From positions 479,184 to 543,183 of the forward strand of contig VMEP01000001.1 of assembly GCA_007375595.1 (NCBI GenBank): a stretch of DNA of 64,000 bases. The letters run 5' to 3'. Below the pieces are notes generated by a model. That model saw only the letters and a list, made by a program, of their open reading frames with translations. It made no database searches and was not told the origin of the DNA. Each line of letters begins with the position of its first letter. Position 1 is the stretch's first letter. Below, piece after piece: positions 21,490 to 24,324 of this stretch. Position numbers and translations under genes: made by a program. This stretch comes from Parcubacteria group bacterium LiPW_30. Its GTDB lineage: Bacteria > Patescibacteriota > Minisyncoccia > Phycocordibacterales > VMEP01.

Positions 21490-24324
21490 ATGGAGCAGTA
21501 CGACCACCGAAAAATTGAAAAAAAATGGCAGAAGGTTTGGGAAGAAGAAAATACTTTTGCTACAGACGAAGATTTAAGTAAACCAAAATCTTATATTTTG
21601 GATATGTTTCCATATCCATCAGGAGAGGGTCTTCACACCGGACACGTTAAGGTCTACACGGCGAGTGATATTTACGCACGTTATAAACGAATGAATGGTT
21701 TTCGAGTTCTTCACCCAACAGGGTGGGATGCTTTCGGTTTACCAGCAGAGCGTTTCGCGATAAAACATAAAATTCATCCTCGTGTGGCGGTGGATAATAA
21801 TGTTGCTACTTTTAAACGGCAAATGAAGTCGGTTGGTTTTTCTTATGATTGGGAAAGAGAAATTGATACCACTGATCCAAAGTTTTACAAATGGACGCAG
21901 TGGATGTTTCTTAAAATGTATGAAAAAGGGTTAGCTTACGAGTCTTATCAGCCGATAGTTTGGTGTCCTACGTGTCAGACCGGATTGTCTAACGAGGATT
22001 TGGAGGGCAACGCCTGCGAAATATGTGGAACCGTAGCAGAAAAAAAACTAATGAGACAGTGGGTTATTAAAATTACTGAATATGCAGATAGGTTGGTTGA
22101 GGATTTGGATATTTTGAAAGATTGGCCGGAATCATTTAAAGAAGCGGAAAGAAATTGGATAGGAAAAAGCGAAGGCTCAGAAATAGATTTTAAGATAGAT
22201 GGAATGGATAAAAAATTTACAGTGTTTACGACGCGCGCAGATACCCTTTTTGGTGCGACATATACAGTTCTTTCGCCAGAACATAAATTAGTTGCTGAGT
22301 TAAAATCTAATATTACAAATTGGGATGAAGTTTTGCAGTATCAAAAAATAGCAGGTGAAAAAACGGAGATTGAACGAACATCTGAAGGAAAAGAAAAAAC
22401 GGGGGTGAAATTAGAGGGAATTTTTGCAATTAATCCAGCAAATCAAGACAAGCTTCCGGTTTTTATTGCAGATTATGTTTTAGTTCACTATGGTACTGGG
22501 GCAATTATGGCGGTTCCAGCGCACGATGATAGAGACTATGAATTTGCCAAAAAATTTAATTTACCGATTAAGGTGGTTATCGAGCCTGTTACAGGGGAAG
22601 TTAAGGAAAATGAAGAAAAAAGAAAAAGTATCGTTGCGATAGTTAGAGACCCAAAAAATGGGAAAATCCTATCTCTTAATTGGGGTGAAAAATTTGGTGG
22701 ACAGTTATTTATTGGTGGTGGAATTGAAGACGGAGAAAATGCGGAGAGCACGGCAATTAGGGAAATAAAAGAAGAGACAGGTTATAGCGAGATCCGTTTG
22801 GTTGGAACTTCGGAAACAATTCATCATCATTACTTCGCACATTCAAAAGGGGTGGCAAGGAATATTGATGCTATTGGTTTGCATTTTGAACTAATTGGAA
22901 ATAAACAAGAATTAACATCACAAGACGAATCCGAAAGAGGTAAGTTTAAGGTGGAGTGGATAACAGAAGAGGAGGCCGAGAAAAAAGTGAGTGACCCGCT
23001 ACATCAATATGTGTTTCAAAAATTTATAAAAAATAAAGTGTATACAGGAAATGGAATTCTTACTGAGTCACCTGATTTTAGTGGTTTATCTTCCGAAGAG
23101 GCAAAGATAAAAATAACCAAATTTGTTGGCGGAAAAATGAAAACCACATACAAGCTTCGTGATTGGGTTTTTTCTCGCCAGAGATATTGGGGGGAACCGA
23201 TTCCAATTATTCACTGTGAAAGCTGTGGAGTTGTACCCGTGCCAGAAAAGGATCTGCCGGTTGTTTTGCCGGATGTTAAGGCATATGAGCCAACAGGAAC
23301 GGGGGAATCACCACTTGCTGATATTCCTGAATGGGTAAATACAAAGTGTCCAAAATGTGGAGGTAATGCTAAGCGCGAGACAAATACAATGCCTCAGTGG
23401 GCAGGCTCATCTTGGTATTATTTAAGATTTATCGATCCTAAAAATGATAAGGCCTTAGTAGACGAGAAGAAAGAAAAAAATTGGTCTCCGGTTGATGTTT
23501 ATGTTGGTGGGGCGGAACATGCGACACGGCATCTTATTTATGCCCGCTTCTGGCATAAGTTTTTATATGATTTGGGGATAGTTTCAACCAAAGAGCCATT
23601 CATGCGCCTTGAAAGTGTCGGTCTTATTTTGGCTGGTGGTGGGGTAAAGATGTCTAAGCGTTTAGGCAATATAGTTAATCCCGATGAGATAGTTGAGTTA
23701 TATGGGGCCGACACACTTCGAATTTACGAAATGTTTATGGGACCTTTCGGTCAAGCTAGCGCATGGGACACAAAATCAATAATCGGCCCACGTAGATTTT
23801 TGGAAAGAGTTTGGAAACTACAAGAAAAAATTTCAAGTGATGAAAATTATACCGAAAGTGATAATACGATAATGGTTTTAAATCAGACTATAAAAAAGGT
23901 TGGAGAAGATGTTGAAGAATTTAAGTTTAATACCGCAATAAGCCAAATGATGATTTTAGTGAGCACGCTTGAGTCTGAGGAAAATATCTCTCATAAATCT
24001 TTTAATGAACTGTTGCTTCTTTTATCACCGTTTGCTCCACATTTCGCCGAAGAGTTGTGGGAGATAGTTGGTAACGAAAAATCAATGAATAAGGCTGTTT
24101 GGCCAATCTACGACGAATCTAAATTAACTGGAGGGAAGGTTGTAATTGCAGTGCAGATTAACGGAAAATTGAGAGAGACACTCGAGTTTTTAAGCAACGT
24201 TTCAGAGGATGAAATTAAGGAAGCGGTTATGAATTCTCCTCGTGTTAAATCGTGGATTTTGGATAAAAAAATTAAGAAAACAATATATATAAAAGGAAGA
24301 ATGTTTAGTATTGTTTTGGAGTAA
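21490..24324 (+). CDS. leuS: Leucyl-tRNA synthetase with an embedded Nudix-box domain
   Basis: HTGH and KMSKR class I motifs and CP1 motifs ([30 protein letters not shown]). A roughly 130-aa insert contains a perfect Nudix box, [23 protein letters not shown]. Confidence 0.9.
   Translation: [944 protein letters not shown]

Follow-up and report, generated by a model that had tools for sequence, protein, structure and literature searches.

Canonical bacterial leucyl-tRNA synthetases (LeuRSs) are represented by the structures from Thermus thermophilus (1H3N, 2BYT and 2BTE) and Escherichia coli (4AQ7 and 4ARC), and the LeuRS encoded in our window shares with them the Rossmann core, the ZN1 region, the CP1 editing domain with its Thr-rich and Asp motifs, the KMSKS loop, and the anticodon-binding and C-terminal domains. 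An editing role of the Thr-rich TTRADT motif in the CP1 domain is established for both organisms. To our knowledge, extra catalytic domains are rare among bacterial aminoacyl-tRNA synthetases (aaRSs). According to a recent large survey, the LeuRS editing domain invariably occurs inserted into another domain and in no case accommodates an insertion itself (PMC13114784). Ap4A arises chiefly from aaRSs, and its degradation by Nudix enzymes is widespread (PMC10148737). Nudix-type ApnA hydrolases are marked by a conserved Tyr that follows the Nudix box, within the X-loop (Dunn 1999; PMC5389931); the X-loop concept is taken from the latter source.

The window is the whole stretch of 64,000 nucleotides analysed here. 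It carries a leuS gene in which a Nudix hydrolase domain is nested, with the following features.

21490..24324, plus strand: leuS, open reading frame of 944 aa, bacterial-type LeuRS with a nested Nudix domain
21634..21645, plus strand: HIGH-type signature HTGH of the synthetic site, aa 49-52 (motif match)
22150..22587, plus strand: N-terminal portion of the CP1 editing domain (aa 221-366; PF13603)
22228..22245, plus strand: Thr-rich editing motif TTRADT, aa 247-252 (conservation in relatives)
22516..23097, plus strand: segment exchangeable by recombination, Nudix cassette with conserved CP1 flanks, codons ~343-536 (allele comparison)
22522..22536, plus strand: editing-site HDDRD including conserved Asp residues, aa 345-349 (conservation in relatives)
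22588..23034, plus strand: Nudix hydrolase module, a "type I" cassette at "site B", aa 367-515 (PF00293, AlphaFold2, Foldseek)
22717..22785, plus strand: Nudix box on helix 418-430, aa 410-432 (GX5EX7REUXEEXGU, matched at every position)
22831..22860, plus strand: X-loop and subfamily signature, consensus [FY][FY]A..K..NR, aa 448-457 (247-copy comparison)
23035..23148, plus strand: C-terminal portion of the CP1 editing domain, covering aa 516-553 (aligned to T. thermophilus LeuRS from residue 375 on)
23647..23661, plus strand: KMSKS-type loop KMSKR, aa 720-724 (motif match; no leucine-specific domain before it)
23875..24198, plus strand: anticodon-binding domain, aa 796-903 (PF08264, 66 bits)

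The host protein scores 995.2 bits against the TIGR00396 leuS_bact equivalog model, whose cut-off is 548.4, and matches the LeuRS of Parcubacteria group bacterium LiPW_30 with 100% identity. When compared to T. thermophilus LeuRS (E 2.5e-219), it differs in a Nudix insert of 149 aa, which stands in place of a 10-residue CP1 loop (T. thermophilus residues 364-375), and in the leucine-specific domain: in the alignment T. thermophilus residues 581-637 have no counterpart and the query passes directly from 717 to 720. Since this domain is a variable accessory, present in the T. thermophilus and E. coli enzymes and not universal, its absence leaves leuS_bact membership unaffected. A reading made earlier from the sequence alone had set the 944 aa against about 860 aa in typical bacterial enzymes. 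The protein is indeed longer, but the difference from LeuRSs of ~860-878 aa is composed of +149 for the Nudix domain minus ~55 for the missing leucine-specific domain.

Among 87 relatives, both with and without Nudix, the editing residues T247, T248, R249, D251 and T252 are invariant, as are H345, D346, R348 and D349 of HDDRD. H49, G51 and H52 show no variation, and the HTGH and KMSKR motifs as a whole are invariant or nearly so. The full-length AlphaFold2 model (pLDDT 90.5) reaches a TM of up to 0.85 to the E. coli LeuRS-tRNA complex 4AQ7, and LeuRS-tRNA complexes can be superposed on it. Because the signature and editing residues are invariant with or without the insert and the model superposes on LeuRS-tRNA, the host is judged to be otherwise canonical and presumably fully functional.

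The Nudix domain is inserted into a surface loop of CP1 that is hypervariable. PF13603 covers aa 221-375 (profile positions 1-151 of 185, 204.6 bits) and is interrupted at profile position ~151, and aa 516-553 form the normal C-terminal part of CP1; in the relative P0233, which has no insert at site B, PF13603 is unbroken over profile positions 1-183. The sequence-only reading had described an insert of about 130 aa between the editing motif and the return to the LeuRS core. An insert exists, but it measures 149 aa and lies within the editing domain. The coordinates given at the time, 22600-23030, were accurate (aa 371-514), and the motifs quoted were found at aa 333-366, 410-432 and 554-572.

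The insert forms a full Nudix domain, and its catalytic motif is intact. PF00293, whose gathering threshold is 21.1 bits, aligns to aa 378-508 (profile positions 3-130 of 134); the score is 51 bits when the whole protein is searched and 55 bits (E 1.1e-14) for the segment cut out of it. The domain-only AlphaFold2 model (pLDDT 95.2, pTM 0.89) has the canonical Nudix order of secondary structure, an alpha/beta/alpha fold with the box on a loop-helix-loop, where helix 418-430 bears REIKEETG. When this model was used in Foldseek, only Nudix hydrolases were returned, with 2AZW at the top (TM 0.77, E 6.5e-9). The perfect Nudix box that had been claimed fits at every position, and a six-frame translation of the window contains a single instance of the strict pattern; likewise, the leuS ORF is the sole match in the window to an HMM built from related inserts. 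A chance box outside a Nudix fold is excluded by the profile match and the predicted fold.

Downstream of the box, comparison of 247 copies revealed an X-loop segment of fixed length in 240, with an aromatic pair and near-invariant Lys and Arg: position 448 is aromatic in 239 copies, K453 is kept in 237 and R457 in 216. The module belongs to a distinct Nudix subfamily, whose signature can be written as GG.E.GE...REI.EETGY...[FY][FY]A..K..NR...W. The insert is apparently an active, catalytically competent Nudix pyrophosphohydrolase, as far as its intact motifs indicate.

PF00293 was found in 94 of the 120 best full-length LeuRS relatives (Parcubacteria/Patescibacteria), and ~107 of the best 150 Nudix representatives at 50% identity are flanked by LeuRS sequence. 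The possibility had been raised that such an insert is common and already annotated. It is common in this clade and is flagged automatically by PF00293, but the literature search found no description of a Nudix-LeuRS fusion or of a Nudix-aaRS association. NCBIfam has no model of the LeuRS-Nudix architecture, the matches being generic leuS_bact and weak Nudix models, and a structure search with the full-length model found no Nudix domain in any solved LeuRS.

The site-B copies were de-replicated at 80% identity to 178, which range down to ~25% identity to the window copy. E425 is present in 176 of these, E428 in 175, E429 in all 178 and G410 in 176. Keeping the metal-binding Glu triad in 98-100% of such diverged copies argues for catalysis. 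From the dN/dS ratios, 0.042 for Nudix and 0.026-0.064 for the LeuRS core, the insert is estimated to be under purifying selection as strong as that on the essential core, which adds to PF00293, AlphaFold2 and Foldseek in confirming the Nudix domain inside LeuRS.

The module is also exchanged and lost. When compared to the allele P0130, the nucleotide identity is 97-100% outside one segment and ~45% inside it, with the left breakpoint at codon 342/343 and identity regained at about codon 536. A LeuRS allele whose protein backbone is 92-96% identical bears a Nudix domain of another type, only 29% identical. Such a differing Nudix in a near-identical backbone is, by this comparison, a swap by recombination. 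In the core tree, LeuRSs of 794-830 aa that have no Nudix are placed next to others that bear it, and at the insertion site they have short unrelated loops. Judged from these alignments, the module is dispensable for LeuRS and behaves like a cassette. Other inserts seen in LeuRSs of the same clade are alpha/beta-hydrolases, an HAD domain, a PD-(D/E)XK domain and tandem Nudix copies, and an IleRS hosts a His_Phos_1 phosphatase. From these unrelated enzymes, the CP1 region may simply tolerate insertions.

The same Nudix subfamily occurs at other synthetases. Extra copies are found at a second LeuRS site. A DPANN-type ProRS has an embedded member, which scores 175 bits against the LeuRS-insert HMM and is inserted between the anticodon-binding and C-terminal domains; no editing domain was detected by Pfam in this ProRS. 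Free-standing members lie 2-34 bp from valS (L004), argS (L005), a bacterial leuS and an archaeal-type leuS (L012). The archaeal-type LeuRS has no Pfam-detected Nudix, and 34 bp downstream of its gene is a Nudix gene whose product is 58% identical to a LeuRS insert. One free-standing member lies next to both tsaD and valS. The label "MutT" given by JGI to the free-standing members is a generic COG name.

Of the nine sampled free-standing members, four directly adjoin an aaRS gene and five share a gene run with one; for the other four, no aaRS gene was present within the few kb recovered on each side. At an interim tally of 4/7, the binomial p for adjacency was ~4e-4 with a null of 6%, which we consider generous. 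LysRS, PheRS and HisRS, which are strong Ap4A producers, were not seen as hosts or neighbours of the subfamily. Taken over the gene contexts sampled, the subfamily appears habitually coupled to aaRSs in Patescibacteria (CPR) and DPANN, fused or adjacent, and its recurrence in LeuRS (two sites), in ProRS and beside valS, argS and leuS supports a tie between the module and aaRS chemistry.

Clues to the substrate were sought in comparisons with known Nudix families. Position 448 is Tyr in the window copy; of the 247 aligned copies, 111 have Tyr there and 128 have Phe, with a further aromatic residue at 449. Position 448 may correspond to the X-loop marker of the ApnA hydrolases, with Tyr or Phe in the subfamily compared to a conserved Tyr in those enzymes (PMC5389931). 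The X-loop Pro of the ADP-ribose pyrophosphatases is not conserved (Pro in 23-39 of 247 copies at the variable positions 451 and 452), and the NudC motif SQPWPFPxS downstream of the box was found in 0 of 247. No NCBIfam Nudix equivalog model came near its cut-off; for example, the RppH models gave 20-24 bits with cut-offs of 116-118, and the MutT model TIGR00586 gave 18.9-22.6 bits with a cut-off of 97.9. Structural and profile neighbours include the Ap4A hydrolases of Aquifex aeolicus and human, T. thermophilus Ap6A hydrolase, RppH-Ap4A and AvrM14. The ApnA hydrolases 3I7U, 1F3Y, 1VC8 and 4IJX are among the matches, with scores no better than those of RppH, NudB, NudI and MutT. The Nudix domains have low median pI values of 5.3-5.6 and a net charge of -5 to -7. 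Such acidity suits a small molecule better than RNA as the substrate.

Our preferred explanation, to which we assign a probability of about 0.5, is that the insert is an autonomous pyrophosphohydrolase tethered to synthetases and probably acting on ApnN-type dinucleoside polyphosphates. The module would be physically tethered to and co-expressed with LeuRS while remaining outside the aminoacylation and editing mechanism. An aminoacyl-adenylate attacked by ATP or other nucleotides would give ApnN by-products such as Ap4A, and the module would cleave these asymmetrically to AMP and ATP or NTP, with proximity to the synthetase being of possible benefit. Clearance of Ap4A by the fused domain, which the sequence-only reading had suggested, is plausible, and the ApnA-like features appear generic. 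Several observations weigh against an ApnN substrate: the likeness to ApnA hydrolases is no closer than that to other Nudix enzymes; the top PDB profile match is an mRNA-decapping enzyme and not an Ap4A hydrolase; the marker Tyr is found in about half of the family and Phe in the rest; and the hosts or neighbours LeuRS, ValRS and ArgRS are low or non-producers of Ap4A, with the strong producers not seen among them. In the results of Goerlich 1982, as far as they are relayed in PMC10148737, LeuRS, ValRS and IleRS are weak producers and ArgRS a non-producer.

Two other enzymatic roles are possible, though each is considerably less probable. The CP1 domain of LeuRS is located at the tRNA acceptor end, and at least one DPANN archaeon has leaderless 5'-ppp tRNAs without RNase P. 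The tether could bring an RNA 5'-end pyrophosphohydrolase or decapper of the RppH/AvrM14 type to the acceptor end, or to other RNA, where it would remove 5'-triphosphate, Np4 or NAD-type caps. The nearly full-length AvrM14-A/B profile match (E 1.6e-12), which covers K..NR and W, points this way, together with the member beside tsaD and valS and the E. coli RppH structures among the top Foldseek matches (TM 0.65-0.71), a generic likeness. Bacterial RNA can bear Np4 caps, which Ap4A hydrolases take off (PMC13010140). This role is made doubtful by the low RppH equivalog scores and by the acidity of the domains (net charge -5 to -7, pI ~5.5), with no basic RNA-binding surface in the sequence; in addition, the ProRS insertion point is not obviously close to the acceptor end and the free-standing forms have no RNA-binding partner domain. 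A house-cleaning or salvage Nudix that merely hitch-hikes in the insertion-tolerant class Ia CP1 loops of CPR, uncoupled from aminoacylation, is similarly tentative. Through fusion to an essential, constitutively expressed gene, a reduced genome would express a small enzyme neutrally or at a saving, and the unrelated enzymes in LeuRS and IleRS loops, the loss or exchange of Nudix without visible change in LeuRS, and the unrelated contexts of some free-standing members agree with it. It does not readily explain why one subfamily recurs with aaRSs of different classes and domains of life, why adjacency is far above the chance expectation, or why the archaeal-type LeuRS without Nudix has a close homologue of the insert immediately downstream.

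A role within the LeuRS mechanism itself is very improbable. For pre-transfer editing, the Nudix would hydrolyse Leu-AMP or mis-activated adenylates freed from the synthetic site, which had been proposed from the sequence alone. The insert lies inside the editing domain and the substrate, adenylate-based, is made by its host. Aminoacyl-adenylates are, though, acyl-phosphate anhydrides and not nucleoside diphosphate-X compounds, and our literature search found no report of Nudix activity on them. No feature links the module specifically to the editing site: partners of the subfamily include ArgRS and a ProRS without a Pfam-detected editing domain, and close LeuRSs without Nudix keep every editing residue. 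We give just as little weight to a non-catalytic nucleotide or alarmone sensor, or a structural tRNA-contact domain, regulating LeuRS, for example by compensating for the leucine-specific domain that this clade lacks. Non-enzymatic Nudix domains exist (PMC5389931). The near-invariant Glu triad points instead to catalysis, which tells against the purely regulatory sensor suggested earlier. Moreover, the Nudix-less LeuRSs of 794 aa share the junction GLILA..G.KMSKR and so are also without a leucine-specific domain, and the free-standing homologues cannot serve as LeuRS domains.

Over a large part of one major radiation of bacteria, the LeuRS editing domain is host to a second enzyme. Selection on this module is of core strength, even though the module is exchanged and lost as a cassette would be, and the subfamily tracks synthetases across classes (LeuRS, ProRS, ValRS, ArgRS/IleRS) and domains of life. 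This points to an unrecognised need in minimal genomes without nucleotide synthesis, possibly the removal or recycling of adenylate-derived dinucleotides, or RNA-end processing at the synthetase. More speculatively, the subfamily could be a dedicated aaRS partner in the ultra-small symbionts (CPR, DPANN), acting at the enzyme-tRNA interface either by removing caps or 5'-ppp from the tRNA acceptor end or by channelled recycling of ApnN to ATP and AMP where nucleotides cannot be made. If so, the quality control of nucleotides or tRNA ends would gain a new layer that is coupled to synthetases, and the class Ia CP1 loops would serve in these lineages as a platform on which a set of hydrolases (Nudix, alpha/beta-hydrolase, HAD and His-phosphatase) docks. 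Nested domain insertion and the exchange of allelic cassettes within an essential gene could also be studied here in a natural system.

When the insert is compared with known Nudix proteins, its best PDB profile match is AvrM14-A/B (8DP8/8DP9), over positions 9-144 of 149. The Nudix box is common to the two, and the signature residues K..(N/Q)R and W are aligned as well, but AvrM14 is a secreted, stand-alone effector of the eukaryotic flax rust with ~18% identity in the structural alignment (TM 0.61) and reported mRNA decapping. Like the insert, A. aeolicus aq_158 (3I7U/3I7V), T. thermophilus Ndx1 (1VC8), human NUDT2 (4IJX) and E. coli RppH-Ap4A (7SP3) are small and consist of one Nudix domain; TM values are 0.62-0.79 and identity to the insert is 17-23%, and none of them is fused to a synthetase. 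The closest structure, at TM 0.77-0.78 and an rmsd of 3.0 A across ~150 columns, is 2AZW, a MutT/Nudix protein of Enterococcus faecalis, which is also the third-best profile match (E 5.4e-12). Unlike the insert, it is a free-standing protein from structural genomics, and it provides no functional information. On the side of the host, the IleRS with a GNAT domain (NCBIfam NF040702, where it is curated as an architecture of its own) is likewise a class Ia aaRS with an extra catalytic domain, although both the host and the enzyme differ.

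The insert lies in the product of the following gene.

21490-24324, plus strand: leuS, a bacterial-type leucyl-tRNA synthetase (LeuRS) of 944 aa (open reading frame; TIGR00396, 995 bits, cut-off 548)

Parcubacteria group bacterium LiPW_30, which belongs to the Patescibacteria (CPR), has a LeuRS 100% identical to this protein, and the three motifs on which the sequence-only reading was built map to aa 333-366, 410-432 and 554-572. A NUDIX domain was detected with Pfam at aa 378-508 (profile positions 3-130 of 134), scoring 51 bits within the whole protein and 55 bits (E 1.1e-14) as an excised segment, against a threshold of 21.1. 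When the 64-kb window is translated in six frames, the leuS ORF is the only match of the strict Nudix-box pattern and also of the subfamily HMM; the Nudix domain claimed earlier is therefore real and not a chance motif. Its insertion point, previously placed between a CP1 motif and the return to the LeuRS core, was mapped by alignment to the T. thermophilus LeuRS, of which residues 364-375 are replaced by query residues 367-515; from 516 onward the query resumes as the usual C-terminal part of CP1. The Pfam model of the editing domain (PF13603) is broken by the insert at profile position ~151 of 185, while it runs unbroken over positions 1-183 in P0233, a relative without an insert at this position of the CP1 loop (site B). 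This interruption here and continuity there indicate that the Nudix domain is nested within the editing domain, which is itself inserted in the Rossmann fold. The protein exceeds the typical LeuRS length by only ~70-85 aa despite the 149-aa insert because the leucine-specific domain (T. thermophilus 581-637) is missing from the same alignment. At window 23640-23661 (aa 717-724), where the T. thermophilus and E. coli enzymes have this domain ahead of KMSKS, the LeuRS of this clade is without it, and so are the Nudix-less relatives.

The full-length AlphaFold2 model has a pLDDT of 90.5 (92-95 over the insert) and a pTM of 0.80, and it matches LeuRS-tRNA complexes with a TM of up to 0.85 (4AQ7). 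The domain modelled on its own reached a pLDDT of 95.2, and a structure search of PDB with it returned Nudix hydrolases exclusively, with 2AZW on top (TM 0.77). The other top matches were RppH (including its Ap4A complex), NudB, NudI, the Ap6A hydrolase Ndx1, the Ap4A hydrolases of A. aeolicus and human, MutT1 and ADP-ribose pyrophosphatases. The host LeuRS itself seems intact: HTGH, KMSKR, the Thr-rich editing motif (T247/T248/R249/D251/T252) and the editing aspartates D346 and D349 are invariant among 87 relatives. An assembly or frameshift artefact was rejected: the reading frame is uninterrupted, the differences are predominantly synonymous, and more than 100 clusters at 50% identity, drawn from many samples, share this architecture.

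PF00293 was found in 94 of the 120 best full-length relatives, most of which carry the strict box GG.E..E...REI.EETGY at the same position. These relatives are 53-99% identical to the window LeuRS and are labelled Paceibacterota, Parcubacteria, Moraniibacteriota, Yonathbacteria, Minisyncoccia or Patescibacteria. When the Nudix domain alone was searched against 1.84 billion representatives at 50% identity, only 371 matches were obtained at E<=1e-3, and about 107 of the best 150 have LeuRS flanks. In the 178 site-B copies remaining after de-replication at 80% identity, the metal-binding glutamates are kept in 176, 175 and 178, and the subfamily-specific K453, R457 and W490 in 171, 155 and 176, respectively. 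Against P0124, a relative whose cassette is of the same type, the Nudix domain has 45.5 synonymous and 12.5 non-synonymous changes and a dN/dS of 0.042; that of the LeuRS core is 0.026-0.064. Purifying selection on the Nudix domain is thus as strong as on the surrounding essential enzyme, which argues for a retained catalytic function.

The identity of the Nudix domain to the window copy is bimodal, 43-91% for type I (the kind in the window) and 25-38% for type II, whereas core identity is unimodal. In P0130, a LeuRS whose backbone matches the window protein at 92-96% identity, the Nudix domain is of type II with 29% identity. At the DNA level the two genes are 97-100% identical on either side, but identity is ~45% from codon ~343 to codon ~536; the breakpoint on the left falls inside a conserved 12-residue CP1 motif, and synonymous differences follow thereafter. 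This is an allelic replacement by homologous recombination with a divergent leuS, not a transposition. The comparison of window 22516-23097 with the relative's locus L001 (leuS at 585-3431) shows the cassette swap between leuS alleles that are otherwise near-identical, and the backbone there is a mosaic of blocks with 99-100% or 87-90% nucleotide identity; such blocks suggest frequent homologous recombination among strains. An intein or mobile element was considered and rejected, since Pfam gave no Hint or homing-endonuclease match in the protein, and swap breakpoints within conserved CP1 coding sequence with synonymous differences are those of allelic homologous recombination.

Nudix-less LeuRSs (794-830 aa) are scattered beside Nudix-bearing sisters in a neighbour-joining core tree built without bootstrap, and they have short unrelated loops at the site. 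No Nudix remnants or deletion scars were found there, so that loss and original absence are not separable by scars. One Nudix-less locus keeps the synteny of the window, and no Nudix gene lies within 8 kb of it. Together, the Nudix-less sisters, the allelic swap and the short unrelated loops indicate that the module is dispensable for LeuRS function and behaves like a cassette that can be exchanged within a hypervariable loop of CP1. Other inserts were observed in eight related LeuRSs of 1076-1346 aa (P0231, P0213, P0229, P0194, P0239, P0182, P0190 and P0233), where the junction of catalytic core and CP1 holds a PD-(D/E)XK domain (PF13366) or alpha/beta-hydrolase domains (one or two); a HAD domain after the Nudix domain and up to three Nudix copies also occur among them. 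Inserts of ~130-200 aa lie further downstream in other LeuRS relatives.

The surroundings of leuS in the window contain the following features.

20354-20929: ORF-free stretch of 576 bp between ychF and the next ORF
20930-21394, minus strand: ORF of 154 aa, hydrophobic in its N-terminal half, with a tandem repeat of acidic character (EDIEEIQEDVEEIQEDVEDIQEDVEDIQED)
24535-26830: sigma70-region-4 + HARE-HTH protein and then a DUF8128 protein, downstream of leuS
30708-33992: ORF of 1094 aa with no Pfam match at E<=1e-5
34100-35956: alanyl-tRNA synthetase of only 618 aa

The downstream genes keep their synteny with leuS in each of the three loci of relatives that were examined, with or without Nudix in the LeuRS, and a YceG homologue comes next after them in the relatives. 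The 154-aa ORF has no Pfam match, and its place upstream of leuS is conserved in the relative's locus L003. The ORF-free stretch has a GC content of ~0.45 compared with ~0.37 nearby and is identical to L003 (4865-5440) at 574 of 576 positions, while identity in the genes on either side is 87-98% per 100-nt window. Within the stretch lie TTGACA-N17-TATAGT at ~20427-20455, a GC hairpin with a T-run behind it at ~20684-20725 and, at ~20885-20925, a perfect hairpin of 40 nt; the fold of 20460-20730 has -93 kcal/mol (z = -2.1). No Rfam match was obtained for the stretch, which holds a candidate non-coding RNA of ~270 nt with no known family assigned, and Rfam detected no leader RNA or T-box upstream of leuS. 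The alanyl-tRNA synthetase (AlaRS) consists of the catalytic core and the tRNA_SAD domain, the usual C-terminal extension being absent.

The same Nudix subfamily was found at other places in and around synthetases. Within LeuRS, the core/CP1 junction is a second site, with one or two extra Nudix copies in some proteins and the only Nudix domain in others. Free-standing members have 154-207 aa and are 45-58% identical to the embedded copies, and nine of them were sampled for genomic context. An aminoacyl-tRNA synthetase (aaRS) gene directly adjoins four of the nine: valS in the order tsaD-Nudix-valS with a 4-bp gap (locus L004); argS in the order argS-Nudix with a 13-bp gap, an IleRS gene coming next (locus L005, an arrangement on at least 24 contigs); leuS, 2 bp after the Nudix gene, in the same YchF...sigma70r4/HARE-HTH synteny as the window and with an internal Nudix domain as well; and an archaeal-type leuS with the Nudix gene 34 bp downstream (locus L012). 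A fifth is one gene away from a 643-aa ProRS in which the same Nudix domain is embedded, and four of the nine have no aaRS neighbour. At an interim tally of 4 of 7, the adjacency had p ~4e-4 under a generous null of 6%. Two synthetases in these loci have inserts of their own.

L017, 2762-4693: ProRS with embedded Nudix domain (aa 388-534)
L005, 5386-8498: IleRS with an inserted His_Phos_1 (phosphoglycerate-mutase-like) phosphatase domain (aa ~507-668)

In L017 the ProRS shares a gene run with the free-standing Nudix gene and a CMP-kinase-like P-loop protein, and in L005 the IleRS adjoins the free-standing Nudix gene and argS. The ProRS domain lies between the anticodon-binding and C-terminal domains, scores 175 bits against the LeuRS-insert HMM, as high as the window's domain, and occurs in five clusters from a clade of ProRSs that bear the label Nanoarchaeota or Woesearchaeota (DPANN archaea). 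The "long non-LeuRS" representatives, tried as further hosts, turned out to be tandem-Nudix proteins. The association therefore spans class I and class II synthetases, ArgRS included, in bacteria and archaea of ultra-small symbiotic lifestyle. The check for Nudix inserts in other synthetases, proposed earlier, found nothing within the 64-kb window, which holds no other Nudix gene and whose sole other aaRS, the short AlaRS, has no insert. A link of Nudix to synthetases is supported by its recurrence in LeuRS, in ProRS and beside aaRS genes.

We propose that the module would be an active Mg2+-dependent pyrophosphohydrolase, autonomous, and tethered to or co-expressed with the synthetase. Fold, catalytic motif, selection, modularity and the recurrent synthetase link are shown by the analysis; the favoured substrate, ApnN, is the weakest step of the proposal, and we give it a probability of about one third. 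The X-loop is a hairpin that follows the Nudix helix and makes the contact to the "X" moiety (PMC5389931). In the subfamily this loop is of fixed length, reads [FY][FY]A..K..NR and has neither the ADP-ribose proline marker nor the NADH motif. An aromatic residue appears to stand where ApnA hydrolases carry their marker tyrosine, and the "invariant" Lys and Arg (K453 in 171/178 and R457 in 155/178 site-B copies) seem suited to a polyphosphate chain. A profile search of PDB ranked the cap-cleaving effector AvrM14 first (E 1.6e-12), followed by the uncharacterised 2AZW and Ap4A hydrolases; AvrM14 and Ap4A hydrolases cleave 5'-5' polyphosphate bridges. The domains are acidic (pI ~5.5), and a small-molecule substrate would fit them better than RNA. 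Ap4A classically comes from synthetases, through attack of ATP on the aminoacyl-adenylate, and its degradation by Nudix enzymes is widespread (PMC10148737). ApnN is favoured because of the X-loop, the bridge-cleaving profile matches, this production of Ap4A and the acidic pI.

The odds stay low because the structural similarities are generic, the hosts are weak producers and the best-scoring characterised relative decaps RNA. As cited from Goerlich 1982 in PMC10148737, LeuRS, ValRS and IleRS produce Ap4A weakly and ArgRS does not. Of the Ap4A clearance proposed in the sequence-only reading, the chemistry stays plausible from the X-loop residues and the Ap4A-hydrolase matches, while generic similarity and weak or non-producing hosts count against it. 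The rank of AvrM14 could instead point to a pyrophosphohydrolase of RNA or tRNA 5' ends, or a decapping enzyme, positioned by the synthetase; we consider this unlikely, the acidic domains being a poorer fit to RNA. About equally doubtful is a house-cleaning enzyme that does no more than use a loop tolerant of insertions, for which the alpha/beta-hydrolase, HAD, PD-(D/E)XK and His-phosphatase domains speak that are inserted in LeuRS and IleRS relatives. Pre-transfer editing of Leu-AMP, the other function put forward earlier, is very improbable: support was looked for and none found, and the subfamily also accompanies ArgRS and a ProRS in which Pfam detected no editing domain. A non-catalytic sensor is just as improbable, being contradicted by the conserved glutamates.

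When compared with known systems, the host belongs to the bacterial LeuRSs and the insert to the Nudix superfamily, both by test, while the NCBIfam models of RppH, MutT, NudB and NudI all score far under their cut-offs on the insert, which lies outside every curated Nudix equivalog. Database labels read "leucine--tRNA ligase", "class I tRNA ligase family protein" or "NUDIX domain-containing protein", and PF00293 is marked by automatic annotation. Full-text literature searches combining Nudix with LeuRS, aaRS, CPR, Ap4A or aminoacyl-adenylate gave no description of a Nudix domain in or beside a synthetase; synthetases are unmentioned in the 2017 survey of the Nudix clan (PMC5389931), and PF13603 is never a host in the 2026 survey of domain insertions (PMC13114784). 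Within its clade the LeuRS-Nudix fusion is common, and automated annotation shows it, yet it is undescribed in the literature searched. It has no NCBIfam model, unlike the IleRS-GNAT fusion, which has its own (NF040702).
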